Shown here in pieces: positions 1-37,300 of a stretch of 64,000 nucleotides of DNA (position 1 is the first letter of the stretch; every line of letters starts with the position of its first letter). The position numbers and the translations under genes were made by a program. The notes beneath the pieces are model-generated. The model did not search any database and had not been told where the DNA came from. It saw nothing but the letters and a program-made list of their open reading frames with translations. Origin of the DNA: a virus (taxonomy: Duplodnaviria > Heunggongvirae > Uroviricota > Caudoviricetes); IMG/VR virus record IMGVR_UViG_3300028797_000094, positions 166,524-230,523 of that record. One strand, written 5' to 3'.

Positions 1-2
1 TA

Positions 3-2906
3 TCAATTACACAAAATCCTGAAATTACTCCAATTATTAGTAGAAGTTATACTGTTTCTGGTGCAACGGATTCTACATATGGTGTAACAACTACTCAGCC
101 TTCATCTGGAAATTATGCAACATTTGACCCAGGTGCAACAGTAAATAAAGAAGCAAAAGCAAAAGGCCGTGGTACAGTTAATAGAGCAGCAGTTACAAGG
201 GCTGCATTTAGTCAAGATGTAAATTTATCTGCTTTTAGTCAAACAGTAAATAGAGCTGCTGTTACTGATGCTCATACAGCAGGATATATTCCAGCTAAAT
301 CAGCTACAACAGTAATTGATGCAGGAAGTTCAACAGTATCTTTAGCAGCTGCTTCACAAACAGTTAGTTTAGCAGCAGATTCAACAACTATCGGTGCTAC
401 TTCTGAGACATCTAATTATTCTTCTGAAAGCTCATCAACTACTACAGTAAATGCTGGTACAAATATTTATATTCCAGTAGCAGTTGCAACAGCAGCAGGT
501 GGAACGGCATCAGCAAGTGCTTCAATTGCTAAACAACCAAGTGCAAGTGCTAGTGCTACAGCTGGTACAGCTTCAGCTAGTGCCTCTCAATCAGGTATGA
601 CTGCTGGTGTAAGTAGTACTGCTACAAGTTATTATTTTACATCTTCTGCAAGTGCAACAGGTGGCAATGCCTCAGCAAGTGCTGCTTCTGGTTATTCTAC
701 AGCTAGTGCATCTGCAAATGGTGGCTCTGCCTCAGTTGGAAAAGGTATTACTGCTGGAGCATCTGCAAGTGGACAAGCATCAGGTAATAAGTCTGCTACT
801 TCTACTGAAGTAACAGCATCAGACAGTAAAACAGGTGCTAATGCATCAGATAGTTCAACTATATATTTAAAAGCTGCTACATGTACTGTAGCAGGAGGCG
901 GTTTAAGTAAAGGAACTGCAACTGGTGGTGATCTTTCTGGTGGCGGACTTTCTAAAGGAACTGCTACTGGTGGTGGATTATCAGGTGGCGGTCTTAGCAA
1001 AGGTACAGCCTCTGGTGGTGGATTATCAGGTGGTGGTTTAACTAAAGGTGATGGAGCTGTTAATGTATCATCATCAAATGTATCTTTAACTGAGGTTAGT
1101 AGTGCACCAAGTTCTGGCTATTATATTACTGCTACAGGAAGTGGTACAGTTAATCGTGCTACTATAACAAGAGCAGCATTTAGTCAAGATGTAACTCGTG
1201 CAAAAGTTGATAGGGCAGCATTTAGTCAAGATGTAACTCGTGCAAAAGTTAATAGAGCAGCATTTAGTCAAACAGTTACAAGAGCTAATATAACTGATGC
1301 ACATACAGCTGGATATTTACCTGCTAAATCTGCTGCTACAGTTATTGATTCAACTTCTGAAACTGTTAGTTTAGCTGCTGGTAGCATAGCTGCAGATTCT
1401 ACAACTGTTAGTTTAGCTGCTGGAAGCTTAGATTCAACTTCAACAACTGTTAGTTTAGCTGAAGATTCTATCAGTTCAACTTCTGAAACTTCTAATACAG
1501 CTACAAAATATTATACTATTCCAACTGCTACTTTTACAAATGTTACAGTAGTTGATAGCGGTGGTGTACAAATAGTTAGTGGTGCTGGTTATACACCTAC
1601 TAAAAGAATTTCAGCTTTGACTATTCCAGCAAGTAATACATTAACTACTGTAACTCTAACTAGTGGAACAAGTTCAAGTAGAACATATTTAACTAATTTA
1701 AATGTTAACGGTTATACAACTGTAGCAAATTTAAATTTAAGTGGTATTATTACAACACTTACAAATACAAGTGGTATTATTTCAACACTTAGTAATGCTG
1801 GAACAATTACAACATTAAGCGGTACTGGTGCAATAACTACTTATTCAGACACAGGTACTATTACTAATATGATTGGTAGCAGAACTATTACTACATTAGG
1901 TAGCTCTAGTAGTACAGGTACTATTAATGTTACTACTAATGGTTATAATTCTAGTTATAAAGGTTATATTAATGTAACAACTAATACAAATGGTGTAATT
2001 AGACTTGGTGGAACAACTGATGCTGGATCTAATATATATTTTACTGGTTTAGATGGAGTTATTCCTTCTAGCAAATCACTTAGCTCTTTAACAGTTACAG
2101 GAACATTAACATCATTATCTGGTGGTGGAACTGTTAATATTGCTTCTGGAAAAACTTTAACTACACTTGCAAATGCAGGTACTATTACAACATTAAATGG
2201 AGCTGGTTCAATAACTACTTTAGGTGGAAGTGGAACTATCGGAACATTCTCTAGAACTGGTAATATTACAACATATTCTGGAACTGGTACAATTTCTAAT
2301 ATGACAGGAAGTAGAACTATTACAACATTAGGCTCTTCTAGTACTGCCGGTACTGTTAATATTACTAATAATGGATATTCTGGCTCTTATAAAGGTACTG
2401 TAAACATAACAACAAATACAAACGGTACTGTTAGAATCGGTGGTACTACAGATGCAGGATCTAATATATATTTCACTGCTTTAAATGGAACTGTACCTTC
2501 AGGAAAAACTCTAACATCACTTACAAATAGTGGAACAATTACAACATATTATGGTAGTGGTACAATCACTAATTTAGGCTCATCTAGTTCAGCAGCAACT
2601 ATGAATATTACAACAAATACTTATGGTACAGTTAAAGTTGCTGGTGGTGCTGGTACAACAACAGGTGGTAGTTCTATTATTAATAAGACTGTTAAAGTAT
2701 CATTAGGTAATTCATCTAGTGCAGTAGCAACAACAGTTACTGATGCTGATGGCTTCTATATTTCTTCAGTTAGTAATGGTACTACATTAGCAAGCTTATT
2801 AACAGATGGTAATCATAAAGGAATTTATTATAAATTTACTGGTACTACAGGAACTTATAGTACTTTATATTTTAGAAATGGAAATGTTTATAGTCAAGAA
2901 AATTAG
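3..2906 (+). CDS. 5'-truncated Gly/Ser/Thr/Ala-rich repeat protein, probable virion fibre or beta-solenoid structural protein (at least 967 aa)
   Basis: The frame of track ORF 597..2906 is open back to position 3. It carries GTITTL-type repeats, 13-aa and 15-aa tandem repeats and a duplicated domain of about 85 aa. It ends in TAG and has no Trp codon of either kind. Confidence 0.6.
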   Translation, partial: SITQNPEITPIISRSYTVSGATDSTYGVTTTQPSSGNYATFDPGATVNKEAKAKGRGTVNRAAVTRAAFSQDVNLSAFSQTVNRAAVTDAHTAGYIPAKSATTVIDAGSSTVSLAAASQTVSLAADSTTIGATSETSNYSSESSSTTTVNAGTNIYIPVAVATAAGGTASASASIAKQPSASASATAGTASASASQSGMTAGVSSTATSYYFTSSASATGGNASASAASGYSTASASANGGSASVGKGITAGASASGQASGNKSATSTEVTASDSKTGANASDSSTIYLKAATCTVAGGGLSKGTATGGDLSGGGLSKGTATGGGLSGGGLSKGTASGGGLSGGGLTKGDGAVNVSSSNVSLTEVSSAPSSGYYITATGSGTVNRATITRAAFSQDVTRAKVDRAAFSQDVTRAKVNRAAFSQTVTRANITDAHTAGYLPAKSAATVIDSTSETVSLAAGSIAADSTTVSLAAGSLDSTSTTVSLAEDSISSTSETSNTATKYYTIPTATFTNVTVVDSGGVQIVSGAGYTPTKRISALTIPASNTLTTVTLTSGTSSSRTYLTNLNVNGYTTVANLNLSGIITTLTNTSGIISTLSNAGTITTLSGTGAITTYSDTGTITNMIGSRTITTLGSSSSTGTINVTTNGYNSSYKGYINVTTNTNGVIRLGGTTDAGSNIYFTGLDGVIPSSKSLSSLTVTGTLTSLSGGGTVNIASGKTLTTLANAGTITTLNGAGSITTLGGSGTIGTFSRTGNITTYSGTGTISNMTGSRTITTLGSSSTAGTVNITNNGYSGSYKGTVNITTNTNGTVRIGGTTDAGSNIYFTALNGTVPSGKTLTSLTNSGTITTYYGSGTITNLGSSSSAATMNITTNTYGTVKVAGGAGTTTGGSSIINKTVKVSLGNSSSAVATTVTDADGFYISSVSNGTTLASLLTDGNHKGIYYKFTGTTGTYSTLYFRNGNVYSQEN
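894..1049 (+). repeat. About 3.5 tandem copies of a 45-nt unit (GGGLSKGTATGGxLS)
   Basis: Visible directly in the translation and in the DNA. Confidence 0.85.
1170..1290 (+). repeat. Tandem 39-nt coding repeat (RAAFSQDVTRAKV)
   Basis: GCAGCATTTAGTCAAGATGTAACTCGTGCAAAAGTT occurs twice, followed by a diverged third copy. A related block lies at about 175-420. Confidence 0.85.
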
Positions 2907-2920: not shown

Positions 2921-5578
2921 ATGGCACTTATTGAACATATAAGAAATAGTTTAGTAGACAGTACTGGTAAAATTCGTGAATATTATCTAGCTGAAAATGT
3001 AGATGATGCTTGATTTCAACAAGTAGTTTGTCTTTTAAGTGAATTAAAAACTGTACGAATTTCTATAAATAATGGAAGTTCTTGAACTACTGTAACTAGC
3101 CGTGGTAATGTAAATTTATGTGAATTATTTTATGGCTCTGGTACTAGCAGAGTTTTGCCAGCAAATGCAAATGTAATAATAGAAATAAGTGAATATGTAG
3201 CCCCAGTTGATTATTCTGGTAATGGCTATTATAATAGTGCGAGTATAACTACTGGTGGAACTACTTATACTCCAGTTAGCAATCGTATAACTGTTCCAGT
3301 AAATAAGATAACTAAGACAATAGCAGATGTAAAAGGAACACCAGAAACTTCAACAATTACTATTGATTTTCCTTTACATGTTGAATCTGTTTCTATTGTA
3401 TATAAAGATAAAAATGGTCAAGAACAAACACTTAATATGACTAGAGCTCAATATGATGCTTATATTCAAACTTATGGAACGCATCCAACTTTAGAGTGTT
3501 GATCAGGAACAAGTGCTAGTGTAACTAAAACATATGAAGCTGGTTATGAATCAGGTGGAAGCAGTACAACTGAAACTGATTGAGCTATTGGTAGACCTAG
3601 TGGTGGAACACAAGGTGGAAGTGGTAATGTTTATTATATAGATGATGAAGGTCAAGTTTCAGATGATCCAGCAGATTTAGGTGATCTTGGTGATGATGAA
3701 AGCCCAGCAGTAGAATCATTTACATTTACTTTGACAAAGAACTCGCATATTGATACTATTAAAATTTGAAGAACAAGTTCTCCTTATCAAGGAGCTGCAA
3801 CTTCAACAGAAAGTAGTCCATTAATTAATGGTACTGGAACTGCAACTATTTATTATGGTGATGTTTTAGCTGGTAAAGCTTATGCTGCTACTGGATATCA
3901 TTTTGGTTCATTGAACTCTAATACAACATCTACTTTTTCAAATGCTAGTGTTACAGCAAATGACTCTTGGAGTCCAACTGTTAACTTAAATAGCTACAGT
4001 ATTAAATTCTTAGGCCCAACATCAGGATATGGTAGTTGGAATGTAGATGAAATAGATGCTTATCATGGTGATGCTATCTCAAGAAGCTCTAATACAGTAA
4101 CAATTACAGGAAGAGGCAGCTCTACATTTACACCACCTTCTAATACTGCTCAATATTACTATACTGTAACTTATCCAACTATTTCATCACCTGTTACTGC
4201 TGCAGCAAGTATTAGACCAACAGTTACTCGAAATACTCAAACATATACTATTACTTTAACAAATGAAAACGGCTACTGGGAACAAGGTGCTACTACTATA
4301 ACACAAATTACTAATGTGCCTTATGGTACAGCAATTAGTAAATCAGGAACTACTTTAACAGTAGGCTCTACTAATTATAGTTTTAATGCTAATAGTGCTA
4401 CGGCACAATATACTTATTCTAATCCTCAGATAGTTGCTTTTGCTGGCTCAACTGTAACAGGTAATATGACAATACATGGAAAAGCAACTGCTAATTTAAG
4501 ATCTTATACTGTAACATTAAGTAGTACTAATGGTTATTGAAAAAATTCTGGTGGCACTACAGTAACAACAGCTGGTAGTCGTAGTTATGGAACTACTATG
4601 AGCAAATCAGGAACTACTTTAACTGTTGGGTCTGATACTTATACATTTAATGCTAATGCTAATACAGCTCAGTATAATTATACTAATCCAACAATTGGAA
4701 CAGTACCTTCAACAGTAACTGGTGCACATACAATTTCTGGCTCAGCTACTAGAACACTAAGATCATATACAGTAACAATCTATTATCATTTTGAAGGAAC
4801 TCCTCTATGGTCAGATAATCGTGTCTTTAATTATGGCACACAAGTAAATCCAGATATATATTTTGAAAATTATTCTGATAGTAATTATACATATAGTACT
4901 GCAACTTATGATAATCCACAACAAGATAGTGACTTTGAAGTAACTGGTGATAGAACAGTTTCTGTACATTATATTAATAGAACATTTACTGGTACGGCTA
5001 CTATAACATTTACAAATCCAAATTATGGATACTGAGATTATAATAGTAAAACTGCAACAGCTAATGATTATTTATATATAAGTGGAAATACTGTTACTTG
5101 TAGAATTGGTAGCTCTAGTGGTTCAACTAGATGAACTAATACACTACATCCAGATCCTCAAGATGATGAATTTACTTATACAGCTAGTATAACAAGTTCT
5201 TCTCGTACTGTTAATACTGCTAGTATAAGTATTTCAAGCTCTTCAAGCTATGACTATAGATATTACTATATTCCAGTTACAATATATTTCTATGTTGATG
5301 GTACATATCATCATCAAGCTACAGCTGCTCAATTTGGTCCTGTAACTTACTGAGAGACTTTAAACTCAGAAACAGCTGAGGATATTGGTGGTGTTCCAAG
5401 TTCATTCCAGGTAGAAGGACCAGGAGAAGGTGATCTTAGAGAAGCCACTCTTAGCTATGCACGTATTTCAACATCATCTGATGGAAAGTATAGCTCTACT
5501 TGAAGTGGTCGACCAGTTGAAGTAAGTAGATTTTATGTAAAAGCTTATTATATTACAAATGGTGGAGATGGAGACTAG
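2921..5578 (+). CDS. 885-aa virion-type protein with repeated beta-rich domains (TGA read as Trp)
   Basis: ATG follows an AAAGGA RBS. Track ORFs 3155, 3911 and 4598 share one frame, broken only by about 10 TGA; the gene ends in TAG. Internal repeats align NGY-TGG (4277) with NGY-TGA (4538). Confidence 0.8.
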
Positions 5579-5592
5579 AAAGGAAATTATTT

Positions 5593-7230
5593 ATGAATAG
5601 AGAAGACTTATTTAATATTATAAAAAATTCAAGTTCAGAATATAATACTATTTCAAAGATAGAGAATTTAACGGAAAAATTACCAACACTAAATTCTACA
5701 GATTTTAAAGTATTAACTGAAAATCCTATACTACTTAAAATTATTAGAAATTATTTAGCAAACGCAGAAGATTTAGAAGATGATTTTAAAGATTTATTAG
5801 AAAGAATTATTAAAGAAGTTCCAAGCAATCCGATTATTATTGGCGTTGCTGGAACTTGAGGTAAAACCACAACTTGTAATTTATTATATAAATACTTAAG
5901 AGCTATCGGAAAGCATGCTTGTTTAATAAGTAGTTCTAAAATTGAATGTCCATTTTTTAAGTATGATAGTAATAATTCTCATATTAATACTATTTCAGAT
6001 AATAACTATATTAAAGAATTTGTAAAAAAAGCATTAATGTCTAATCCTGATTATATTATTATTGAAGTACATGAATTAGAAATTTGCAAACGTCAAGCTA
6101 ATTATAATGGTACTATGGCTACTCAAGCCTTTAGAAATTTAGCACCAGGACAAACTATTTTGGATGATATTCCTTTTGATTATAAAATTTTAACTAGTTT
6201 TGAGGAAGCTGTTGTTATGTCAGCATTTCCAAATGAAGATATAGTAATAGCAATAAAAGATTTTATTATTCCACAAGAAAATCAAGTTAGTTTTATTAAT
6301 CTTAATGGTTGCAGTAATGCAGAAGCTATTTATAATTCTTGCAAGTCTGGTAATCTTAAATGGCAAGCATCTACAATTTTAGCGAGACATCAAAATTTAT
6401 ATAATATATTAAAAAATGAAAATAAAATATATAGTGAGATTACAAACTTTTTTACTAATATTGATGGATGTGATGTTTCTTTTGACCTTAATGGTACTAC
6501 TTATATAAGTACAATTTCTAATAAATTTGAAATTGCAGTAGATGCTGTATCAGTTGCAAGTATTTTAGAATATTTAAATTTATTTGATAAAACAGTTTTT
6601 GATAATTGTCTTGCAACACTTAAACAAGCTGATCAAATTATAAAACTTACAAACAATAGAAAAATTATTATTACTCAAAATAATTATATTGATTATACTA
6701 ATGTGTATAAACTTCATGAAATAAATCCAGATGCATTTGCGGGAAAACCACAAAATAGTAAAGTTATTGTAATACAAAGTTCTCCATCAAGATATGGTTA
6801 TGGTATTGGTACATATGAAGAGTATATTAGTAGTAAAGCTGCCGTAGAACCAATTAGAAAGCATGATTGAATTGATAGTAATTGTTGACAGTATGTAGAT
6901 AAGCTAATTATTACTCCTGATAGCCCTGGTGAAGTAACACCAGAACAAGCTTGTGCAGATGTTAAAGAAATTTATGATAAATATTTACCAAAAGAAAATA
7001 CTTTAGAAATAGTAGAAGAAACTGATAGAAAATTAGCAATTAGTCAGGCTGTAGCAAATTTAGAAACAAATGATATTTTAATTATTAGTGGACGTGGTAC
7101 ACGTACTCAGTATTTTTGTAAAGCAGATAAAAAAATACATAATGGTCATGAAGTTATATTATTTTCAGATTTATCAATAGTATTACAAACTATTAATGAT
7201 ATATTTGGAATGGACACTATAATTGGATAG
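5593..7230 (+). CDS. Mur-ligase-like (MurE-type) ATP-dependent amide ligase 1, 545 aa (TGA read as Trp)
   Basis: P-loop GVAGT[TGA]GKTT, IIIE motif, and C-terminal DRKLAISQAV..NDILIISGRG. Three TGA, one inside the P-loop; ends in TAG. Confidence 0.75.
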
Positions 7231-7244
7231 GAGATTTTCAATAT

Positions 7245-8498
7245 ATGATACTATATGAATATATTAATGATAAAACATTAGATGAGAATAAGGTAAATAA
7301 TATAAAAATTATTGGTGTTACTGGATCTGCTGGCAAATCTTCTGTAATTACATTATTACATAAATTTTTTATAGCAAATAATATAAATGTTGCAAGTTTT
7401 TCTACTATAGGTACCTATATAAATAATGATAATATTCAAAAAAATAATACTTATTCTTCTATAGCAACTAAAAATGCTCTAATTAAATTTATATATCAAG
7501 CATACTTAAATAATTGTGAGTATATTATTATAGAATTGACGGCTGAAAATTCTTCTCAGACTTTTTGAGAAAATTTACCTTTTGAAATAATTGCAATTAC
7601 AAATTTAATCGGAGATCATTACTGACATTTTGACTCGGTTGAAAATTATATTAAAGCAAAAGCAAATTATTTTAATAATAATGTTAAATATAAAATAATA
7701 AATAATTTTGGTGAACTTGCTGATGAATATTCAGAGTGTGTTCCAGAAGCTCAAGATGAAATTCCTCAATTGCTGCAATATATTAAAAATAAACAAAATA
7801 TTTATTATTTTGGAAATCATCAAACAGATAATTTAGTGTTAGAACAATATAGCTTAATGCAGGATACTTTTAAAGCGTGTCTAAAAATTAATAAATATAA
7901 AGATACTATTTATACAAATTTATTTGGTAAAAGTAATATTGAAAATGTTTTATGTTATCTAGCAATATTAGATAATCTGGCATTACTAGATTTTGATAAC
8001 TATAATATTATAAACTTTTTACAAGAAGTTACAATAGATGGTAGAAGTGAATTGATAACTATTAATGAAAGATTTATATTTATAGATACATTTTATGAAG
8101 ATTTAGCTGGGGCTCGAACTGCACTAGATTATATTCAAAATAAAAATCCTATTGTAGTATTAGCTACTGGTTGTTTAGGAGAAATTGAACCGCTGTTAAA
8201 AACTTATTGATTAAATTGCAAAAATTTAATTTTAACTAGAACTTTTCGCTATTCTTTATTATTAGAAAAATGTCATATTAAAGCATTAGCGCATTATTAC
8301 AGAAATTTAGGTGATAAGGTTATTATTGAGTATGACAGATATGAAGCTGTTAAAAAAGCTTGTGAATTATCACAACCAGGTGATTATATTATTTTATTAG
8401 GTAAAGGCACAGAAAGATATCATAAAGAAAGCCAAGATGAGACAAATATAGTATGAGAAACTGATAAAGAAGTTGCTCAGCATTATTTAGGAGAGTAA
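7245..8498 (+). CDS. Mur-ligase-like protein 2, 417 aa (TGA read as Trp)
   Basis: GVTGSAGKSS, TNLIGDHY[TGA]H (compare MurE TNLxxDHLDYH), DGRSE and DRYEAVKKA..PGDYIILLGKGTE. Four TGA; ends in TAA. Confidence 0.85.
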
Positions 8499-8499
8499 T

Positions 8500-9297
8500 A
8501 TGATATATGTAAAAATAAATACTTCTACTATGTGTTCACCAGATGAACAAGACTCTATAGCTATATCAAAATTTGATTATTTTAAACTAAACTGTGGCGC
8601 ATTGATATGAGAAAATAATATATTAGTACAAAATCCTGAATTTATACAAAATTTTTTTACTGAACAAGTTTATGGAGTAGAAATAGAATTTTCTTGTAAA
8701 GAAATTTATAATTTATATTTAGCTTTAAATAAAGCCGGTATAAAATATGTAATTAGTAATAAAGCTCATGAAGCAGATTATGAAAATATTGTCATTAAGC
8801 CAGAGATTAGTGTAAAGCATGGTTATGAAATTAATTTTCCACCTGCTTATTCTAGAATTTCTGATGTGCTAAGTATTATCAGCCAATATGTAAAAATCAC
8901 AAAAAATTGTGCTTTACATGTACATATAAGCGACCCGAGATTACATATTGATATTCTTCCAACATTTACTGAGAAATATAAGCAATATGAATTGACAAAC
9001 ATAGCTTTACTCAAGGAACATAATTTATATCATATTTATAGTAGCATAGATTTAACAGCTGATGAGCTAAAGTCAATAGAGCAAGAAAGTCTTGTTACTA
9101 ATTATAATAATATTGAATCATTATTTGATAGAAGAAGACTAACTTTAAACGTATTTAAGGCTTTTAAAAGACATAGAACAGTAGAATTTCGTTTATATAA
9201 GTCTACTCTTGATTATACTGAATTAATGTTTTGTGTAAATAATGCAATAGAGATTGTAAATAATTGCTTAGCTGATATAAATAAAGAGACAGAATAA
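8500..9297 (+). CDS. Putative amidoligase (COOH-NH2 ligase family), 265 aa (one TGA)
   Basis: YGVEIEF, NCALHVHIS and TVEFRL motifs. The frame is open from ATG 8500 apart from a single TGA at 8608. Confidence 0.7.
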
Positions 9298-9310
9298 TCT
9301 GTCTCTTTTT
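9285..9310 (+). terminator. Intrinsic terminator
   Basis: AGAGACAGA-ATAA-TCTGTCTCT followed by a T tract; identical 26-mer at 10548. Confidence 0.85.
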
Positions 9311-9322
9311 ATTTATTTATTT

Positions 9323-9338
9323 TTTGCTAAATTATATG
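9323..9338 (+). promoter_or_regulatory. Putative late-type promoter motif TTTGCTAAATTATATG
   Basis: Intergenic, and recurs near 13432 (minus), 26600, 54304 and 55407, with a variant at 48974. Confidence 0.5.
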
Positions 9339-9389
9339 GAATATAAAACTTTAGTTTTATTTTAAGTGTCTAAAGGAGAAAATAAAATT

Positions 9390-10541
9390 ATGACTATTGA
9401 TCAAGTACAAAAATTATTATTAGATGGTTATATTACAGCTGAAGAAAGTGATTCTTTGCTATATGAATATACTATTTGAGATGAAAATACCCATACAGTT
9501 CTTAATAACCCAGCATGACATCAACCAGACCTAAAAACAATTAAAAAGATTGGTATAACTGGCAGCTTTGGAAAAACTTGTACCTGTGAAATACTTTATC
9601 AGTATTTACGAGCTAAAGGAAAAAGTTGTTTATTACTGTGTACAAATGGTATATTTATAAATGATAGAACTGTTCAAAAAGATTTTTTAGCTACATCTTT
9701 CTCAAAAGCAATGCTTTTAAAGTTATTAAATGGTCTATGTGGGGCAAATTCTATAGATTATGTAATTATTGAATTAGCAGCTGAATTAACTACTTATTTT
9801 AATAATAATCTTTTTATTGATTATATACAATTAGATATTACAGGTTTAACTTTCTTTTCACAAAATTTAACTGCTCATTTTAATAATGATACAGCATTTT
9901 ATCAAAGATGTAAGGATAAAGTACTTGGATTAGCTCCAATACGTTTTGTACCTTCAACCTGCACAGAATTTAATTATACAGATATTTTTGAAAATGTAGA
10001 AAGCTTTAGAAATTATAATAAAAGTCAATTAAGAAACTGATCACTCGCAAAAGCAATATTACAAAAATTAGGTGAATATACTATTCCAGAAGAAGAAATT
10101 CCAAATTTCTATATTCGTGGCCGTTATGAAGATTTTTTAAATAATAAAATTATAATTGATACTTGTTGAAGTGGAATACGACATTTATGTGAATGCTATA
10201 AGCCATTAAATAAAAAATTTAGAGTAATATATGTACCTATTTTTTGACCAGACATTAATCAATCTATAATAAATTATAGGCGACGTCAATTACCAACTTT
10301 AGCAAGTTGTGAACATGTTTATATAACTGATCCGAAAGAAATTACTGTAGAAAAAGATTTAGATTTTTATAAAGATTTTTTACCAGAAGATCACAGTAAT
10401 TTTGAATATATTTTTGGCTGGGAAAATTGTGTACGAAAAGCTATAAATGAATTACAAGATGATGAAATTTTATTAATAGCTTGTAGAGAAAACTTTAGAG
10501 CTTTTAGACATATCTTGGTTGATTTATTAGATAAAGAATAA
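9390..10541 (+). CDS. Mur-ligase-like protein 3, 383 aa, divergent (TGA read as Trp)
   Basis: AAAGGAG RBS, GITGSFGKTCT P-loop, VIIE and IRGRYE motifs. Five TGA; ends in TAA. Confidence 0.7.
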
Positions 10542-10573
10542 AAAAATAGAGACAGAATAATCTGTCTCTTTTT
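10541..10573. terminator. Bidirectional intrinsic terminator between convergent genes
   Basis: A tract, then the AGAGACAGA hairpin, then a T tract. Confidence 0.8.
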
Positions 10574-10615
10574 AATTTGCAATTTTAAGCTCAAAATTTG
10601 CTCAATTTCGCATTT

Positions 10616-26647: not shown

Positions 26648-27568
26648 ATGCCAGAAGAAAAAGAATGACAAGACTTTAATAGAACTAACAATAGAATTGA
26701 AAATAAGGATGTTGTAGCTATTGAAAAAAATGTTGAATATTTAAAAGAAACAAAATCAACAGTTTCTGTTCCAGAAGAAATTTCTGGAAGTGCTCCAGAA
26801 ATTGAAGGCTTAATCATTGATGGAACAACATATAAAATTCAAACATTAACAGAAGAACAAATTAATGCTATTAATTGGGCTTTTCAAAAATGACAAAAAG
26901 AAGAGGCAGAAGCAAACAAGCCAGAAATTACCAGTTTTATAGTAAGTCCAACTTCAGTAGTTCCTGGAGAAACAGTTAATATTAATTTTTCTTTTACAGT
27001 TAATAGAATAGCTAATGTAAAAAAAGATGAAAATGATAAATATATAATAAAAATAAAATTAAAAAATACTGGTGCTTATCTTGTTGATCAAAATGCTATT
27101 GATTGAAGTGCATCCCCATATACAGCTAGTTTAGAAATGTCTACTATTGAAGATCAATTCTATGCATTAGAAGTAACACCAGCAAGTCAATATTTAGTAG
27201 ATAAAATAACAAAAGATGTAGAAATTTTAGTTGGCTATCCTTGTTATTATGGTAATTTGGCAGCAACTACATTTACCGCTGCTGATGTTTTAGATAATAC
27301 AAAGTTTACTCGTGTTCAAAGCTGACCAGCAGAAGGCATTCAAATGACTACTCCAACTAATAAATATACATTCTGAGTAGTTCCAGAAAGTTATTCTACA
27401 TATACTCCAGAAAGCAATATGCCTGAAGATTTAGAAGTAATTCCTGGAATTTCAATTACTTTAGATGGCCATAGTTATTATGTTTACAGCCCAAATTGAA
27501 CTATTGCTACTCAAACACTTGATTTATTTCAAATAGAAGTAACTGATACATATAAGCTTAATAGGTAA
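26648..27568 (+). CDS. 306-aa probable virion protein (6 TGA read as Trp)
   Basis: AAAGGAG RBS; single frame to TAA; first TGA at codon 7. Confidence 0.7.
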
Positions 27569-27579
27569 GGAGACTAACA

Positions 27580-30500
27580 ATGCCAAAAATTTATAGTAAA
27601 TTAGTAAATCCAAAAGGTAGCAAAGTTGCTGATTTAAAAGATATTGATTTAGGTAATGCTGAGGAAATTAAAGGTAAGGTATTATTTATTAATAATAGTG
27701 GAGAAGCTGAATGAAAAACCCCTGGTTCTGTTCCTGAATTAAAGGGTGATAAGGGTGATAAAGGCGATCCAGGTGAAAAAGGTGCTGATGGTGCTCCTGG
27801 AGCTGACGGTGCTCCTGGTGCTGATGGTGCTCCTGGTGCCATAGGTCCACAAGGTCCTGCTGGTGCTGATGGTGAAAGCATTTATACCATTACTTTAGAT
27901 AATGATTTTGATTCAATTCCATGTGCAGCTGATGGCACTCCAAGTTATACCCCACAACAATGAATTGATCAAACAAGTCATAATATTAAAGTTTTTTGTG
28001 GAACAAGTCAAGAAGAATTTTTAATGTCTGACACAGTTCCAGTAGTAAATGATAATATTTTAACAGTAGTATATGAATATGATAGTACTAAACTTACTGT
28101 ATATAATTCATGGCCAGTTGTAGCAGTTAATAATTTTACACAATATATTACAGCATTAAATTCTGATAAAGAAGTTATCACTTATAAATTGTATAAAGGT
28201 AGTACATGACTTGCTCAAGCTAAATTTGAAATTTCAAAGCTTCGTGCTGGACAAGCAGGTGCAACAGAAACTATTTCAGGTTTTCATGAATATTATTTTG
28301 CCTGCAATAAATCAGACTATAGTGAGTTTCCTGCAGCAGATAAATTCATAATTAATGAGCAAGTTAATACTAAATGAAAAGAAGATATTTCTCAAATTAC
28401 TTTTGATGAAACTCATCAATATTTGTGAAATGGTGAAGAAACTGTTCTATATGATAGTGTTACTGGTACATCAAGAAGTTTATTTACAGCACCAGCATTG
28501 CTTGGTCATTTTGCTGTTGATGGTAAAGGTATTCAAAGTATTGAAAATTGATATTTAGCTACACCAACAGATGAAACTCCAGAGTTTACACCAGCTTCGC
28601 CATGAAGTCAAACATATATTGTGCCAGACGGTAATAATTTATATGTTTGAAATGTTGAAAGAATTATTTTTTCAGATCTTTCACAAACTGTAACCAATCC
28701 TACAATTGTTACATCATTAGGTGTTCCTGGTATACCTGGAAAAGGCATTGATGGATTAGTTGAATATTATTATACATCAAATACTGATAATTATGAAAAT
28801 ATTCCATCATCTCAAAAATTTATCTATAATGGTGAAATTAATACTGCTTATTGAAAAACTTCAACTACTGAAGTAATTTTTGATGAAGAACACCCATACT
28901 TATGAAATGGTGAATCAATTGAATATGATGATAATACTCATCAAGAAACTTCACCAGTTGTAATTGCTAATTGGTCTGCAGACGGCCGTGGAATTGATGA
29001 AATTAGAAATTATTATGCAAGAACTACTACAAATAGTAGACCACCATTCGTATTCGCAGATTTAGATGATCCTGAATCTGCAACATATTTAGCTGGATGA
29101 TCTATTACTTATGTGGCTCCAGATGCAGAAAATAGATATTGTTGAAATGTTGAAGTTATTTTTTATAATGATGATACAATTGAAACAACACCAGTAGCTT
29201 TGTGCTCATATTTAAGTGAAGATGCGGTTGATACTACAATTCATTTAAGTACAAATATTATTAGAAAAGCAAGTGATGATGTTACTTTTAATCCAACTGT
29301 AATTACTGCACAAGCTTTTGCAACTACTGGTTCTGGTGAACCTTCTGAAGTTACTAATAATGTTTATTGAAAATATTGATATAATAGTGATACTGCAAAT
29401 GCTCAATATGCGAGTGACATTATAGCACCATTAAGTATTAATGTTATAGCTAATACTGAAATAATTACAATTGAAGCTTATTCAGATGAAAATTATCTTA
29501 ACTTATTAGATAGACAGACTGCAAATGTAATTCATGATGGTCAAGATAATGAAGCAATTTATAGAGTAGTATTAGATAATAACTTTGATTCTGTACCTTG
29601 TGATGCAGATGGTATTATTTCATATACAAGTTCAGACTGACATAATCAAACTGCTCATACTTTTAAAGTTTATTTTGGTAATGAACAACAAAACTTTAAA
29701 ATTGCCAAAAAAACAGACCCAGTGGTAAGTACACCAGATTTAACTATTTTATATTCACTTGAAGCAGTAACATTTGAAAGTAGTATTGATTCTAATATAG
29801 CTATTTCTAGTCAAACTGCTTATTTAAATTCACTTACTGCAGATAAAGGTAAAGTTCATTATGAATTATATAAAAATGGTGAACAATTAGCTTGGGCTGA
29901 TTTTGACATTGTAAAAATTAAAACAGGTAAAGATGTTGTAGATTATTATATTTTAACAGACTATTCTGCAATAGGTAGAGCTGGTGATGGACAAACAATT
30001 ACTCCAGCACAATTAGAAATAAAAGCTTATAAGAAAGTTGGTAAAGATCTTCCAACACTTATTACACTTGCACAATTAGCACAACAAGATCGTGAAGTAG
30101 ATTTAGTTATTAAAAAAGATAATACTACTGTAACATTAGATTCTAATTATAAAGTTAGTACAAGTGGATTAACAGATAAATTTGAAATTGAATTAAAGAA
30201 CCATACAGATAATACAATTTTATATGATAAAGAAACAGTGTTACTAGTAAAAGATGCTGTTCAAACTTATGGACATACTGTTTTCTGTGCTGACCCAGAA
30301 GGTTTAACTCCAGAAGCTATAGATTATTCACCAAGTGTATCAAAAAAATACACAACTATATATTGAGATGGCAATGTAAATGCTGCAGCAAATTGAGCTA
30401 GTTTACCAGCAAATTTAAATTGATCTTTATATCAACCAGCTACTATTGTTAGTGTAATAAAACAATATGCACAACAAGATAAAGCTATTTCAACAGCTCC

Positions 30501-33500
30501 TGCAGAAAGTTCTGAGCTATGGGTTAATGTTCCAGGAGCTTATGATCAAACTAAATATTATTGGGAAAGAACAAAAACAACTTTTGATGATGGAACAATT
30601 TCATATTCAGTTGGTGTTAAAAATGAAGAACTAAATGAATGCTTTGTATTAGCACAAGGTAGAACTAAGTCTATTAGAGGCACCCGTAATGTTATGTGAA
30701 GTTTGCGTGATCAATTAAAAGTTGATGATATTTGATTCTGTACAGAAGATTATTATCAAAATTCACATAGTAGTACTCCACAAGATGCTAATGATGAGCT
30801 TATTTTTGAAGCTAATAATTTATATGTAATTAATGAAATTACTAAAGAAGCTGGTGCTGTTACAAATATTAGTTTTGATCAAGTTGTTAGTGAAGAAATT
30901 GTTAATAAGTTAACAGCAAATTATATTGACGCTCATGAAATTACTGCCGATCTTATTAATATTATAAAAACTAGTGGTGGTCAAAGCAGTACTATATTTA
31001 AAGCTGATGGTAGAAGAAGTACACAAGAACACCCAATTTCAGATGATGATAGAGTTCAAATTGGTGGATTTAAAGTAACTGATAGTTCTTTACACACTGA
31101 GGGTCTTACAAGCATGTCACAAACTTATCCAATAGATCCTAACACTGGTGAACGTGCAATAGATCCTGAAACAGGTGAACCAATTTATTTAAATGGTGTT
31201 TATGTTGGTACTGATGGTATTAGACTTGGTGAAAAATTTAAAGTTGAACCAGATGGTACAGTTACTGCATCTGATTTCCAAAAATGAATTAGAAATGATG
31301 TTGATTATCAAGTAAGTAATTCAGGCTCACAAATTCCAAGTACTTGGGATACTTGAGCTAATGTTATAAATAATTATGTTGATGGTACTTATTTATGAAC
31401 TAGAACAACACCAGTTTACCAACAAGTTGGAAGTAACCAATATAGTAGAGGTGAAGCAACTTATACAGTTTCTAGTAAAGGTATTGAAGGTACTGCACCT
31501 CATATAGATGCTACAACAGGAAATTGATTTATTGGAAATACTGATACAGAAGTTCATGCAGAAGGTCCACAAGGTATTCCAGGTGTTTCTTATACAATTA
31601 ATATTGAAAATGAATATGTAACAATTCCTTGTGATGATACAGGTGCTCCAATTGATCCAATTGATCCAAATTGAGCAACAACTACTAAGCATACTTTAAC
31701 ATTTTTAGAAAATCTTAGTAGAATTGCTGTAGATGATATTACTATTTCTAGCACTATACCAAGCTCTGGTACAGGCTATACATTATATTATAATATAACA
31801 GGCTTTACTACAATTCGTGGCCCAAGAAAAATTGGAACTTATACTATTTCTGCAGATGTTACAGCAATGCCTAATGCAACAGCAACTGGATGCATTGACT
31901 ATAGCTTATATAAAGGAACTATTTTAGTTGCACAAGCTAAATTTGAATTAGTTAAACAATTAAATGGTGCTGATGGTGTAAGTCCAGTAATTTATAATAT
32001 TAAAAAAGATATTAGTTATATTGCTAAGACAACTGATACAAATAATCCATATAAACAATTAGGTTTTAGTTTTGGTTTAGACAAAATTGAAGGTAGTACT
32101 ACAAGCCCAATAAAAGCTTTTTACTATGAAATTATTGTAGACAATACTGCTACTCCTATTCAAGGTTCTATAGATGAAACTTCAACTGGTGATGGTCTTA
32201 TTGATGTTGATCTTTCTGCAACACATGTTGCTGGTGATTATAATATAACTCCAAATACACAAGTTGAACTTAAAATTTATAGTGATAATTCTTATTCAGC
32301 TGCTAAATTATTAGATAAAGAAACCATTATGGTTGTTTCTGATGGTGATGATGGTGATACTCCAGAAATTATTAATGATTATTGATATATTAATGGCACT
32401 TCAACTGGCGTAAAAGCATTAGGACAAGATGGAACTTCACCATATACTATAAGTATTACTAATGATTTTGATTCAGTATCAGCAGACAATAGTTTAGAGT
32501 ATGATGATAGTTATGCTTTTGCAACTCAAACTTTACATACTGTTAGTGTATATTATGGAAAAGATTTAGTTAATTTTATAGTAGTAAATTCTGCACCAAG
32601 TGCTTCAGATACTGGTGTAAAAGTTTATTGTCATGTAGATAGCGTAACTGCAAAATATACAACACATAGCTCTGCAGATCATTTTGATAATTATCTTGAT
32701 AATAGTAGTAGTTTAGCATTTAACCCTAGATTATCTGCAAAAGGTAAAATTATTTATGATTTATATGTAGATGGTCATTTACAAGATTCTACAGAATTTG
32801 TAGTAGTAAAGAATAAATCTGGTGCTGATGCAATTGACTACTATATGATATTAGATGCTAATACAATTAGTATTGATGTAAATAATAATAATGCTATTTC
32901 ACCTTCACATATTATGCCAGCTGGTCGTAAACAAATTGGTAGCGGCAGTGCTTCTGCTTTTCCAAATGCTGGTTCTAGTACTCCTAACTATTATAAAGTA
33001 TATTGGGATAATGATTCAGAACATCCAATTGATTGGACTGCCCTTTATGATACGGGTATTCCTACAACAGGAGCTGCAAGTCATACTAGATTAAATATTG
33101 AATTATATAAAACTACAGATAAAGCAGCTGCTGATTTATTAGATAGAGAAACTGTAGCTGTTGTTAAAAATGGTAAAACTCCAGTTAAGGGCACTGATTA
33201 TGATGATGGTAAATCTATTACAATGCAAGCTAATGAAGCTGCTTGTCAAGCTATTGGTGATGGTTATATTAATTCAAGTGATGGTCATTTATATGTAGTA
33301 AATGCTACTAGTCCATCTATAACTTTTACAGATTGTGGTAAAGTTAAACCAATTAAAGGTACTGATTATGATGATGGTACTCCTGCTCCATATATTACAA
33401 GTACTGTACCTCAATATATAAGTTGAAGTATAGAAGCTCAAACAGATCCAACAGGATCAGAAGATGAGGTTGATGCTGCACATAATACATATGGAAAATG

Positions 33501-35814
33501 ATGTGAAGTACCATATAATTATGATGCTTCATATAAATATTGAACAAGAACTGTAACTACTTATAGTGATAGCACTCAAGCTAATCCACATATAGATAAA
33601 AGTACTCCAGTTTTATGTCAAGAATTAAATGAAGCATTTAGTGTTACACAAGGTAAATCTACGACTTATTATAGCTCAACTATCCCTGAGAATCCAAATA
33701 AAGGTGATGCTTGATTCTGTACTGGATATATAGATGTGGAAGGTGATCCAGTAAATAATGTTCATAAATATGACACAGATACACGATATGGCGCACATAA
33801 ATGAGTAATTGGGCCAGATGACAAATTTTGATTTACTTTATATGATACTTTTACAACAACTACAAGTTGAGAAGACTTTAAATCAGCTGCCCAACCAATA
33901 GAATGAAGTACTATTAATAGTAGTTCTGAATGATTTAGATATAAAATTGCATATTTTAAAAATACTTTATATCAATGAGATGGCGCAGCTAGTTATCCAA
34001 TATGACATCCAATTAGTGATGAAATAATTGCAAATAAAGTTACTGCAACTTATATTAATTCATTAGGAATTACTACTGCAGGTATTGAAGTTAAAAATGG
34101 CAATAATACAGTTTTATCTGCTTATGCTGATCAACCAAACAATGTTATCGTTGGTGGTTTTACTGTTGGAATAGATAGTTTAACTAAAGCTACTAATAAT
34201 AGCTATGTTAAACTTGGCACAGATGAAATTATTTTAGGTAAAGCTATTAATAATAATTTATATCCATTTAAAGTTACAAATTCTGGTAATGCAACAATTA
34301 ATTCTGCTAATATTGGATTGCCTTTAGCTTTTGCTTCGGGTGTATATTGAAAAACTTTACCAACAGATTTTGATCATGGCTGACCACTATATAATCCACA
34401 GACTGGTGGACAACATACGCTTACTTTTACTTTTCCATCTGAATCAAAAGTTGATGATAATGATGATACAAGTTATGTACTTGACAGTATTGCAGTAGAA
34501 GCTAATGATAGTAGTACTGTAATATCAGAAACAATAGTTGGAAAACAAATTAGTAAATTATCAGCAACTGTAAATAGAGAAGTTATAACTAGAAATAGCG
34601 GCGAGCCATTTGGTGAAATAAGATATGAAGTAATTATTTTTGCAGATGCTGCAAAATTTAGTAGCAGCACTCCAGTAGTTAATATACAAATAACTGCTAT
34701 AAAAACTAATTTTTTAACTAGTAGATCTTATACATCAACTAAAAGTAGCTTTTTAGAAGCTAGTACTTGCTTAGGTCATAATGAAAATGTTGCTGGCTAT
34801 ACTAATTATGCAAGTGCTGATTGTATTACTATTAGTAACGGTGCTTTGCAATTTAATAATGCAAAATTAAGTAAATATGGTATTACTATTACTGATTTAA
34901 ATGATCAAGAACAGTTTACTCCTTGAACAAGCGTACCTGGTAGTTTTGGTCATTTTGTATATAATGAATTAACTAATTGAACACCAGTTAATTTAACTTT
35001 AGCTGATTCAGCTGTTAAATTAGGTGATTATGTAACTATGCAGTTTGCAGCAGATAGTACAGCAAATCCATTTAAAAAATTTAATTATCCACAACCTACT
35101 ACTCTTAATTTACCATTAGATAAAGCTTTACCAGAAGGTTTATTATATAATAGTGTAAAGGGTCAAGTATTTGGTTTATTTCCTAATACAGTTAATTTAT
35201 GAATAACTGGTACAAATAGTAATACAGTTTTAAATATTTCTGGAAAAGTATATAATAATTTTGGTATTGATACAATGCCGATTTTACCAACTGCACCATT
35301 AATTATACCTTTGTGCTATTCAGAAGGTTATGGTGGTTATGTAGCAACAGGTGTCATGATTAATAATTCAACATTAAAAGCTTATAATATATTAGGATAT
35401 GAAGATCAAACTGATAATAAACTTTATTTTCTTTTTGCTGTCGCTCGTCCATATATTTATACATATGATATAAGTTATAACGTTCACTTTACAAATGTTA
35501 GAGTTGGTGGTACTTTAATACCAGATAGTAATTATTCTTTTAAACAGGTTGGCGGAAGAACAGACTTTATTAGACCAGAAGAGGTTGTATTTGGTAATGG
35601 TATAAATAGATTTTTACAAATAGATTTATATGGTATGTATTATACAGGATTTGATAAGAATAGTTCTACTACGCACCATATTACTTTTGATAGCTGTGTT
35701 GAATATTCATATTTAGGTAAAGATAGTCATGATCGAGACGAGTGAAAAGCATCTACTGCTAATGGTACAAGTCTTGATGTATCTGTAATAATGAAAGGAG
35801 CAATAATAGACTAA
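27580..35814 (+). CDS. 2,744-aa tail or receptor-binding-type virion protein with a collagen segment and repeated domains (TGA read as Trp)
   Basis: Read codon by codon: no TAA or TAG from ATG 27580 (AAGGAG RBS) to TAA 35812. About 43 TGA against about 8 TGG; recurring YL[TGA]N.E and ND(F)DSxPC repeats. Confidence 0.85.
27745..27879 (+). repeat. Collagen-like Gly-X-Y tract (15 triplets)
   Basis: GDK GDK GDP GEK GAD GAP ... GES. Confidence 0.9.
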
Positions 35815-35957: not shown

Positions 35958-35959
35958 TT

Positions 35960-37300
35960 ATGTATACTTTAAATGATGCAGTTATTATTGGAATTACTGG
36001 TCGTAGTGGTAAATCTTCTACTGCTTATCTTGTTCATGAGTATTTAAAAAGTATTGGTAAAAAGTCAATTATTTATAGTTCATGCTTAGTAGAATCACCA
36101 GCAAGTTTTGCAGAAGACGGCGTATCTTATGATTTTGCTTTTAGTTCTGAAAGAGCCATTGTTAATATTTTAAATGAAGCTATTGCTTATGAAGCAGAAT
36201 ATATTATTTTAGAGTGCTGAGAAGCTTCTATTGCAAAAGGTGTGTTTGATAATATTCCATTTGATATTAAATGTTTAACTAAGTTTTATTACACAGGAAA
36301 TGGTCATATTTCAGCTGAACAAGTATATCAAAATAAATTAAGATTTTTTAAAGATGATGAAGATGCTATTTGTTTATTTAATATTGTGGGTGATGAAAAG
36401 TATACTCCAGATTATTCAACTTCAAGAATGATTTCAGAAGCTAATTGTTCTAATGTAGTATTATATGATTCAATTGGACTTAAAGACTGATTTATGGCAG
36501 ATTCAAGCTTGGCACCATATGATGTTATTTTTAGATGTCGTGGTCAAATTGCAAATAATTTTACAGCTAATGATGTAAAATATTATGCAAATGGTAGAAC
36601 TTTTGGATTAGAACAACAAAGTGCAAATTTATATTGTAATGGAACAAATTTTAATATAAATACAACACTTGCAGGTAGTGCTCATTTAGAAAATATTGTT
36701 AGTGCAATGGCAATATTAAATGAAGCCGGTGCATTTGATATAGATGCTTTTCAATCTTTTATTTCTAACCCAGATTTACAAATTCCAGGTCGTATGGAAG
36801 ATATTGAGTATCAAGATAAAACTATTATTATAGATACTGATGCAGATAGTGCTTTACCTATAATTAAAAGATTATCTGGTAATCGTAGAATTGTTGTAGT
36901 TGATTCTTATCGTTTAACAAAAATTGATAGTAATGAGCAATATAGAAAAGATAATCCTGATATTTCTTATGAATATAATTTTGATTATGAACCATCAATT
37001 TTAAATCAATATGCAGATTTTGTTTATGTTACAACTGATGATATATGTGATTTACATGAAGGAATAATTATTAGTAATTTTGCTAGTAGACTTACTGTTC
37101 CATATGAAATTATAAGTGATCGTAAACAAGCAATTAGAACTGCTATTGTTGAAAATGGTGATAATCATAATGATATTATTTGTATTTTAGGTAGAGGTAA
37201 TAGAGATATTAGATTTACTGGTTACCACTCAATTGAGTTATTTAACGATAGAAAAGTTGTTCAAGAAATATTAGAAGAATTAGAAAATGAAAGGAAATAA
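35960..37300 (+). CDS. Mur-ligase-like protein 4, 446 aa (2 TGA read as Trp)
   Basis: GITGRSGKSS, IILE, NIVSAMA, IPGRME and DRKQAIRTAI..DIICILGRG motifs. Three track ORFs lie in one frame. Confidence 0.85.

Follow-up and report, generated by a model that had tools for sequence, protein, structure and literature searches.

A 237-kb phage genome of gut or rumen type contains a cluster of ligase genes (5593-10541 of the window, the 64,000-nucleotide stretch of this genome analysed here), whose Mur-like products are diverged ligases of MurE-derived fold devoid of both the UDP-binding N-terminal domain and the DNPR motif. Across phages and bacteria, the conserved element is the combination of such a ligase with a fibre-like protein ending in Asp or Glu. 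Judged from the sequences, we tentatively favour an ATP-dependent ligation onto the C-terminal acidic residue of the fibre, which in this phage would proceed in several steps.

Genomic organization and reading code

Translation of 5593-10541 with table 11 yields only fragments of 88-277 aa. With TGA read as Trp, the same stretch resolves into four closely packed plus-strand ORFs, termed MurA, MurB, the PF12224 amidoligase and MurC (Table 1), which contain 3, 4, 1 and 5 in-frame TGA codons, respectively. The initial annotation had described all cluster genes as TGA-gated, which holds for each of the four ORFs; its three Mur-like genes were recovered as well, but a fourth paralogue, Mur4, had been missed. 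The tRNA with a UCA anticodon is likely a UGA suppressor that enables translation of the TGA-containing late genes, and because the ligase genes carry in-frame TGA codons, their products would be made late, together with the fibres. In the public gene call (P0191), MurC starts at the ATG at 9390.

Table 1. Features of the window discussed in the text (window coordinates).
Feature	Position	Strand	Remarks
3' part of 1122-aa late gene	1..2906	+	gene starts 462 nt before the window; 1 TGA; from ORF map and synteny with G001
885-aa fibre-type protein	2921..5578	+	10 in-frame TGA; ends ...NGGDGD; directly before MurA
MurA	5593..7230	+	545 aa; MurE fold, helical N-extension
MurB	7245..8498	+	417 aa; MurE-like ligase, domains 2 and 3 only
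Amidoligase PF12224	8500..9297	+	265 aa; compact glutamine-synthetase-like COOH-NH2 ligase
Direct repeat, copy 1	9275..9331	.	57 nt; terminator-like hairpin 9283-9308; at end of amidoligase gene
MurC	9366..10541	+	391 aa; MurE fold, central domain shortened, C-terminal motif altered
Direct repeat, copy 2	10538..10594	.	57 nt; 81% identical to copy 1
306-aa TGA-rich gene	26648..27568	+	first of a three-gene block inserted relative to G001
Collagen-repeat fibre protein	27580..35814	+	2744 aa; 43 TGA; ends ...KGAIID; precedes Mur4
Mur4	35960..37300	+	fourth N-domain-less MurE-like ligase
tRNA, anticodon UCA	63291..63365	+	75 nt

The genes upstream of the cluster match tail-fibre/adhesin families (BspA LRR, Listeria-Bacteroides repeat, Big_13, Mtd_N + Phage_tail_C), in agreement with the earlier statement that the cluster directly follows virion genes. 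The 1122-aa late gene, without a match in Pfam or PHROG, occupies a hypervariable fibre slot upstream of the ligases. The 885-aa protein carries its C-terminal Asp after a Gly-rich tail and is 33% identical over 301 aa to part of a 6300-aa giant protein of the relative G001. Family searches with the 306-aa gene gave no match. On the other side of the cluster, the second repeat copy, which has the same 22-nt hairpin core (10548-10569) as the first, sits between MurC and a convergent topoisomerase II gene.

Architecture of the Mur-like proteins

The Mur-like proteins show the hallmarks of the superfamily, an ATP-binding central domain (P-loop GxxGK[TS], Mg-binding Glu) followed by a Rossmann-like C-terminal domain (PF08245 + PF02875). 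Pfam Mur_ligase_M scores 73.8 bits with MurB, in an alignment that crosses two TGA codons, and 23.6 and 19.1 bits with MurA and MurC, both slightly below the cut-off of 24. Foldseek placed the AlphaFold models of MurA (E 1e-21) and MurC (E 3e-15) onto MurE structures, and these matches together substantiate the assignment of three MurE-like paralogues. MurE is the top match in sequence and structure, but only from model position ~82-105 onward, and the scores with the MurE model TIGR01085 (MurA 68.5, MurB 122.9, MurC 32.9 and Mur4 98.2 bits) stay below its cut-off of 257.3.

The N-terminal UDP-MurNAc-binding domain PF01225, which the initial annotation could not recognize, gave no Pfam hit in any of the four paralogues. 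MurB begins ~25 residues ahead of its P-loop, and the range for MurB and Mur4 is 10-25 residues; residues 1-75 of MurA are predicted to be all-helical, at low confidence (pLDDT 47-67). The DNPR or Lys-type specificity motif is absent in all paralogues, the aligned segments being DSPGE in MurA, RTFRYS in MurB, DPKE in MurC and TTDD in Mur4. MurA, MurB and MurC are not recent captures of host mur genes, as they share at most 26% (MurA, MurB) or 43% (MurC) identity with any other database sequence.

Catalytic residues

As previously annotated, MurA, MurB and MurC all retain the P-loop GxxGK[TS] and the Mg-binding Glu, the P-loop Gly/Lys and the Glu being invariant in two alignments, and two of them, MurA and MurB, also have the DR..AI..D....G[KR]G tail, which MurC lacks. 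MurB keeps all residues for ATP, Mg and acyl-phosphate binding, including TN..DH and the carbamylation-site Lys, and has lost DNPR. In alignments of sequences 20-25% identical, MurB has the full catalytic set (DH His, carbamylation Lys, Asn, Gly-Arg), the MurC subfamily has it except for the Asp of DH, and MurA lacks both DH and GR. Because of this loss MurA may be inactive; degeneration of the ATP site, considered at the outset, thus applies in part to MurA only. MurC, the 43% identical P0192 and the homologue encoded by contig L047 share K70, E136, T162, a His, K183, N224 and G252-R253. Among 53 aligned members of the Mur4 family the P-loop Lys, Glu187, Thr209, Lys229 (the carbamyl-Lys site), Asn314, Gly-Arg345, Arg447 and Asp486 (Pantoea MurE numbering) are invariant, and MurB possesses every one of them.

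This conservation bears on the alternative that some or all paralogues are pseudoenzymes that serve as chaperones of fibre assembly, as adaptors or as structural proteins of the virion. In plants, the MurE-like PAP11 has such a structural role, as a subunit of the plastid RNA polymerase, and PAP11 structures are among the best sequence and fold matches. MurA without DH and GR, MurC without the GKG tail and the position of the ligase genes behind a fibre gene, where chaperone genes often lie, would also fit such a role. However, Mur4 family members that are 27-60% identical all have the P-loop Lys, the Mg-binding Glu, the carbamylation Lys, the Asn and the Gly-Arg, and MurB and the MurC subfamily retain these residues as well. 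Such constancy would hardly be expected of non-catalytic proteins. The amidoligase, whether fused or adjacent, likewise preserves its catalytic residues. We consider a non-catalytic role unlikely.

The amidoligase and its fusion to a MurC-like protein

The COOH-NH2 ligase reported between the Mur-like genes passes the Pfam gathering score of PF12224 (24.9 versus 22 bits), and Pfam at E<=1 gave no other match for it, Pup_ligase included. Its ExE, GxE, HxH and ExR motifs are intact, and G59, E61, E63, G108, E110, H140, H142, N217, E229 and R231 are invariant among 16 sequences. Compact homologues keep the catalytic ExE, HxH and ExR and adjoin gp25 or Laminin_G, Phage_tail_C and LRR fibre genes; the proteins encoded upstream of them end in A or G, not in D/E. 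In L047, a single 4.7-kb contig of a closely related phage and the sole source of the fusion, one ORF combines a MurC-like protein with the amidoligase and adjoins the same topoisomerase gene as here.

Pairing of ligases with acidic-tailed proteins

Mur4 belongs to a family of ~190 N-domain-less ligases, which adjoin giant fibre/baseplate genes in phages and giant Rhs toxin genes in low-GC Bacilli. In the tree, MurE and the N-domain-less proteins are split with an SH-aLRT of 100 and Mur4, 27-31% identical to the bacterial ligases, is nested in a phage subclade; MurA, MurB and MurC all fall on the N-domain-less side, their exact position being unsure owing to very long branches. The gene order is recurrent: in G001 the 6300-aa giant is followed by a single ligase, here the 2744-aa giant by Mur4 and the 885-aa protein by MurA, and in L041 and L133 the giant and ligase genes adjoin the gp25 baseplate gene. 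In bacterial MAGs, a small fibre-like protein, a ligase and a giant Rhs protein follow each other in 9 of the 10 loci with a readable downstream gene.

Of the 18 ligases examined, 16 have a fibre-like protein with a terminal Asp or Glu encoded one or two genes upstream, compared with a D/E background of 23-25% of all ORF ends in two phages. As the D/E-tailed proteins are often homologous and represent ~4-5 independent lineages, the probability of chance occurrence is ~1e-3 to 1e-4, as against 1e-8 when calculated naively. In both L041 and L133, the second ligase is preceded by a small protein ending in K or N, and for MurB, MurC and the amidoligase there is no separate giant with a D/E tail. 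Conservation of the neighbourhood does not extend to the four-gene cluster as a unit: the nearest complete relative carries a lone ligase without an amidoligase, so that the cluster is specific to this lineage. A literature search found neither a paper describing the pairing of a ligase with an Asp tail nor a described system of this composition, in line with the view expressed before.

The pairing also has to be weighed against a late-infection activity towards peptidoglycan precursors or stem peptides of the host, as an aid to lysis, a block to superinfection or a change of the wall. In favour are MurE as the closest family, the earlier proposal that phage amidoligases modify cell walls, and a holin-like gene upstream in some bacterial cassettes. 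Against this stand the absent UDP-binding domain and the DNPR/Lys-type motif lost in all paralogues, and the cluster, which lies between fibre genes and topoisomerase II, includes no lysis or further wall-precursor gene; likewise, no peptidoglycan-precursor enzyme or lysis gene is linked to the ligases in this phage. Bacilli MAGs with Rhs cassettes also possess separate high-scoring Mur ligase genes beside mraY, and the linkage to acidic-tailed fibre and Rhs proteins would be left unexplained. The giant fibre product ending in aspartate directly before the ligases suggests extension or cross-linking of the fibre tail rather than cell-wall synthesis, and we regard envelope remodelling as improbable.

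Comparison with known systems

MurE offers the best sequence-profile and predicted-fold match, its central ATP-binding and C-terminal domains being present here, and the MurC-F pathway provides the idea of paralogous ligases taking turns on a growing C-terminal carboxylate. Unlike MurE, the cluster resides in a phage fibre module and not in a dcw cluster, and the proposed acyl substrate is a protein tail. MurT-GatD, CapB/PgsB and FolC, which also lack the MurC-F N-domain, illustrate that the two-domain Mur core can work on acceptors different from UDP-MurNAc. Foldseek lists MurT structures among the fold matches; Pfam scans, however, show only Mur_ligase_M and Mur_ligase_C and no DUF1727, and no glutaminase is found among the four cluster genes. 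The NCBIfam hits at E<=1 include no CapB/PgsB model, and the membrane partner genes (PgsC, PgsA) are missing within 2921-10541. MurB reaches 19 bits with the FolC model TIGR01499 (cut-off 162.65) and MurA 15.1 bits with the bifunctional FolC model NF008101 (PRK10846; cut-off 360).

[quoted passage not shown] CphA1 structures are among the fold matches of the MurA and MurC models, while sequence matches to CphA models are weak. CphA1 is a single multidomain enzyme with an ATP-grasp partner domain and a poly-Asp storage polymer as substrate, whereas the phage encodes separate proteins, with a GS-like amidoligase as partner, that presumably act on a fibre protein of ribosomal origin.

Some N-domain-less Mur-fold enzymes make small peptide or polymer products, CapB/PgsB and FolC among them. 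The CphA1 M domain provides a further example (PMC9262961). Several ligases in a row plus a GS-like ligase might form a soluble peptide or polymer of small size (poly-gamma-glutamate-like, cyanophycin-like or a folate-type polyglutamate) for the virion or the infected cell. Yet the curated CapB, FolC and CphA models were missed or weakly matched, PgsC, PgsA and ATP-grasp partners are absent, and the conserved pairing with D/E-tailed giants would find no explanation. A free product appears quite improbable.

Ligation at an acidic C-terminal residue of a protein has precedents, although by analogy only. In the Pup-PafA system, an ATP-dependent carboxylate-amine ligase of the same GS-like superfamily as the PF12224 amidoligases acts on an acidic C-terminus after a Gly-rich tail (Pup ...GGQ/E), and RimK adds residues to the C-terminal Glu of ribosomal protein S6. 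Here, the main enzymes have a Mur fold instead of a GS-like or ATP-grasp fold, the substrates would be giant fibres instead of a small tag, and a small ORF with a GGQ/E end was not seen among the cluster genes. The bacterial Rhs cassettes share the order of D/E-tailed fibre-like protein, ligase and giant protein (ten bacterial loci). In the phage, by contrast, the acidic tail belongs to the giant fibre itself, whose gene precedes that of the ligase; Rhs repeats were not found in the phage giants, and the present phage adds two more ligase paralogues and the amidoligase.

Proposed function

Of the options originally listed, decoration of fibres is favoured by the pairing with D/E-tailed proteins, and envelope remodelling and a small peptide less so. 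In our tentative scenario the Mur-like proteins would act as MurE-derived ATP-dependent carboxylate-amine ligases, having lost the UDP-binding domain and the diaminopimelate pocket. The acyl substrate, deduced entirely from gene order and C-terminal residues, would be the acidic C-terminal residue of the upstream tail-fibre/adhesin protein, presumably the 885-aa protein (...GGDGD) for the cluster and the 2744-aa protein (...AIID) for Mur4. Acyl-phosphate activation is common to all Mur ligases; correspondingly, the carboxylate might be activated as an acyl phosphate and then joined to an amine, which an amino acid could supply or else another virion protein, through a lysine or its N-terminus. 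The three ligases and the amidoligase would most likely act successively, so that the fibre tail would acquire a short extension, branch or cross-link of non-ribosomal origin.

It is possible, if doubtful, that phage tail modules and the Rhs cassettes of low-GC Bacilli have in common a previously undescribed post-translational system, in which MurE-derived ligases either extend giant fibres and adhesins with a non-ribosomal peptide at their C-terminal Asp/Glu or cross-link them there by an isopeptide bond, and that the present phage carries its most elaborate version with four ligases of two folds in one pathway. If so, the Mur fold would have acquired a new class of substrates, proteins, and phage receptor-binding fibres and Rhs toxins would share an unrecognized step of maturation or attachment. 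Such a step would bear on the anchoring or arming of giant fibres, on the delivery of signal-less Rhs toxins in Gram-positive gut bacteria and on the use of TGA-recoded late genes in gut and rumen jumbo phages.

Genetic code and gene organization

The source record is a 237,392-bp IMG/VR phage genome rated complete by CheckV, and the window covers its positions 166524-230523. Read with the bacterial code, positions 5593-10541 yield only pieces of 88-277 amino acids, and with TGA read as Trp they resolve into four closely packed plus-strand genes for three MurE-like paralogues, designated MurA, MurB and MurC (not to be confused with the cell-wall enzymes of these names), and a PF12224 amidoligase. 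Since the domain matches in these genes span the in-frame TGA codons, TGA is a sense codon here; a tRNA with the anticodon UCA is also present. Only some genes contain in-frame TGA: those of the fibre-type proteins and the ligases, one homing endonuclease gene and one phosphoesterase gene. The GIY-YIG homing endonuclease gene is located between two TGA-free topoisomerase II subunit genes, which are adjacent in G001, the closest complete relative phage; it is thus a TGA-recoded mobile gene recently inserted into an early or replication operon.

Coordinates of the ligase genes and associated features
Feature	Position	Strand	Length	In-frame TGA	Remark
MurA	5593-7230	+	545 aa	3	
MurB	7245-8498	+	417 aa	4	
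Amidoligase	8500-9297	+	265 aa	1	
Direct repeat, first copy	9275-9331		57 nt		
MurC	9366-10541	+	391 aa	5	public gene call: start 9390
Direct repeat, second copy	10538-10594		57 nt		
GIY-YIG homing endonuclease	12641-13396	-		8	
Three-gene block	26648-37300				306 aa, 2744-aa fibre, Mur4
Mur4	35960-37300				fourth Mur-like gene
tRNA, anticodon UCA	63291-63365		75 nt		

Fold, catalytic residues and origin of the Mur-like proteins

Pfam searches identified Mur_ligase_M in MurA, MurB and MurC, and Mur_ligase_C in MurA and MurB. The top NCBIfam model was MurE every time, with scores far under the cut-offs, and the matches start at about model position 82-105, i.e. past the UDP-binding domain; MurB aligns from residue 16 onward to solved MurE chains from chain position ~99. 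MurE structures were also the top fold matches of the AlphaFold models of MurA (pLDDT 77.8; E 1e-21) and MurC (pLDDT 77.1; E 3e-15), followed by MurT, CphA1, MurC and MurF enzymes and pseudomurein ligases. For MurA residues 1-75, five low-confidence helices and no alpha/beta nucleotide-binding domain are predicted. The lack of a UDP-MurNAc-binding N-terminal domain claimed in the initial annotation is thereby corroborated, both by the late start of the NCBIfam matches and by the helical N-terminus of MurA.

MurB retains the P-loop, the Mg-binding Glu, TN..DH, the carbamylation-site Lys, Asn, Gly-Arg and the DR..AI..D....GKG tail, and has lost the DNPR motif. MurC, its closest homologue P0192 (43% identical; encoded on an 8.1-kb contig) and the homologue on contig L047 have in common the P-loop Lys, Glu, Thr, a His, Lys183, Asn224 and Gly-Arg, and carry CRE(N/D)FR in place of the GKG tail. 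An apparent absence of the carbamylation-site Lys from MurC in one alignment was dismissed, as the residue is present in the MurC subfamily alignment. Of the motifs first ascribed to the paralogues, P-loop and Glu stand for all three, and the tail motif stands for MurA and MurB and is replaced in MurC. The DH and GR motifs are absent from MurA. Judged from these residues, at least two of the three cluster proteins look catalytically competent, and the competence of MurA is doubtful. The missing motifs of MurA would suit a role of the Mur-like proteins as chaperones or pseudoenzymes, which we nevertheless consider unlikely in view of the ATP/catalytic residues retained in MurB and the MurC subfamily.

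A recent host capture was rejected on the basis of the low identity of MurA and MurB (≤26%), the missing N-terminal domain and the separate clade. In the maximum-likelihood tree the proteins without this domain split from genuine MurE with an SH-aLRT of 100, and MurA, MurB and MurC lie at the base of their side on very long branches. The cluster gave no blastn match in 50,697 phage records, and IMG/VR pattern scans with the MurB, amidoligase and Mur4 alignments returned G001 alone or no match. The best tblastn hits of MurB among phage records, named ‘Acinetobacter phage MD-2021a’, were discarded as a mislabelled bacterial dcw cluster (ftsI-murE-murF-mraY); these records (CAKLQH020000003.1 and CAKLQF020000004.1), which also contain tRNA synthetase and PBP genes, appear to be contigs of bacterial chromosomes deposited under a phage name. 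Another MurB hit was to the unannotated record MT835527.

The amidoligase and the surroundings of MurC

The amidoligase scores above the PF12224 gathering threshold, and an exhaustive HMMER search retrieved 54 relatives, mostly compact (175-195 aa). ExE, GxE, HxH, Asn and ExR, the metal/ATP set of glutamine-synthetase-like ligases, are invariant in 16 aligned amidoligases. Some compact relatives adjoin the gp25 baseplate-wedge gene, others, on a TGA-recoded contig, have Laminin_G, Phage_tail_C and LRR fibre genes as neighbours. A general pairing of Mur ligase and amidoligase was rejected, as the 8-kb surroundings of 80 generic phage PF12224 loci proved devoid of Mur-like genes. The two are fused on L047, a 4.7-kb contig with an 87% identical topoisomerase: ORF 2-1375, which contains three TGA codons, reads in frame from a MurC-like portion, 35% identical to residues 129-384 of MurC, into an amidoligase (33%), and adjoins the topoisomerase gene as MurC does in the window. 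MurC is flanked by a 57-nt direct repeat, whose copies are 81% identical and share an identical 22-nt terminator-like hairpin core with no further occurrence in the window, an arrangement suggestive of movement or insertion of MurC as a cassette.

Mur4 and the relative G001

A genome-wide scan revealed Mur4; the gene directly before it contains 43 TGA codons and encodes a collagen-repeat protein of 2744 aa. Both belong to a TGA-rich three-gene block inserted between genes that are neighbours in G001, within an otherwise TGA-free collinear run, and the unit of fibre and ligase behaves as a movable cassette. G001 (223 kb; topoisomerase 87% identical to that of the window phage) encodes one ligase, 52% identical to Mur4, directly after a 6300-aa ORF and adjoining the same topoisomerase gene as MurC. 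The 885-aa protein encoded before MurA shares 33% identity with part of this giant. The giant itself (G001:C1:51584-70486; 3' part, L007:13517-21991) spans 6300 codons in a single open frame, 100 of them in-frame TGA, and is an extreme recoded giant gene filling the slot where the window phage has several smaller fibre genes.

In more distant relatives, no Mur-like gene was found either in the 10-kb topoisomerase flanks (L008-L020) or in the four whole records searched. Since these relatives are devoid of Mur-like genes and G001 contains a single ligase and no PF12224 gene, the four-gene cluster is lineage-specific, and the ligase-after-giant-fibre unit is the recurring part. Conserved linkage of all four cluster genes, as considered in the initial annotation, was accordingly not upheld.

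The wider ligase family

A Mur4 search yielded ~190 proteins, including ~18 relatives of 42-61% identity on phage-like contigs and more than 100 of 27-31% identity and ~452 aa on bacterial contigs of ≤1.6 Mb. The phage contigs L041 and L133 carry two or three ligase genes in alternation with those of giant proteins, beside a gp25 gene. An assignment of the phage giants as Rhs proteins found no support, there being neither BLAST similarity to bacterial Rhs nor an RHS Pfam match.

The bacterial carriers are ‘Bacilli bacterium’ and Erysipelotrichales MAGs from rumen and gut with a GC content of 25-36%. Their ligase gene has on one side that of a small fibre-like protein, frequently aBig_2, and on the other that of an Rhs/YD protein of 1600-2200 aa; a holin-like gene is in some cases located upstream. 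The genes around the cassettes are housekeeping; these include the upstream genes of locus L053, on account of which an interpretation as prophage tail modules was rejected. The genomes also contain higher-scoring Mur ligase genes, beside mraY in three of five. Three single Bacilli MAGs of 1.5-2.1 Mb (G007-G009, the genomes of L051-L053) have eight Mur_ligase_M matches each, several of them in frames of 450-470 aa, the size expected without the N-terminal domain, so that one Bacilli genome may hold multiple Rhs/ligase cassettes. At the head of one cassette, a 41-aa ORF (L037:7264-7389) carries the motif W.GT..E(F/Y)..L....T.Y.I, which resembles the C-terminal end of a tail protein with a Phage_tail_C match (L048:4009-5481), a hint that the bacterial cassette came from a phage tail fibre.

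Acidic tails of the partner proteins

The proteins encoded before the ligases share acidic C-termini: ...NGGDGD in the 885-aa protein before MurA, ...GAIID in the 2744-aa giant before Mur4, ...VGEGD in the G001 giant, ...GGTGD and ...PGSEE in the giant and the 863-aa protein of L041, and ...NNQTTD in the L133 giant. All ten bacterial partners likewise end in D or E. Altogether, 16 of 18 ligases have a D/E-ended partner, compared with a background of 23-25% (D alone, 11-12%) when every ORF end of the two phages is counted (247 and 246); the exceptions are the second ligases in L041 and L133. As many D/E-tailed partners are mutually homologous, ~4-5 independent lineages were counted, over which we estimate the chance of the pairing at ~1e-3 to 1e-4.

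Proposed function

Full-text literature searches found no paper in which Mur ligases are connected to tail fibres or to Rhs toxins, and a jumbo-phage survey (PMC7824862) does not mention a Mur-type ligase. New here are the phage version with the acidic tail on the giant fibre itself, the increase of the ligases to three paralogues, and their association with an amidoligase, including the fusion of the two.

Mur ligases in general convert a terminal carboxylate to an acyl phosphate, to which an amine is then added. In cyanophycin synthetase, the Mur-like M domain applies this chemistry to the side-chain carboxylate of a C-terminal Asp (PMC9262961). Because the UDP handle and the DAP pocket are lost, the ATP machinery is retained and the pairing with D/E-tailed fibres is conserved, the fibre tail might serve as the acyl substrate of the Mur-like ligases. 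Envelope remodelling by these ligases appears somewhat less probable than a chaperone or pseudoenzyme role, and the production of a free peptide or polymer is the least probable alternative. We tentatively propose, as the most probable of these readings, that the ligases act on the acidic fibre tail, where the three ligases and the glutamine-synthetase-type ligase of this phage would probably bring about several additions or a cross-link.
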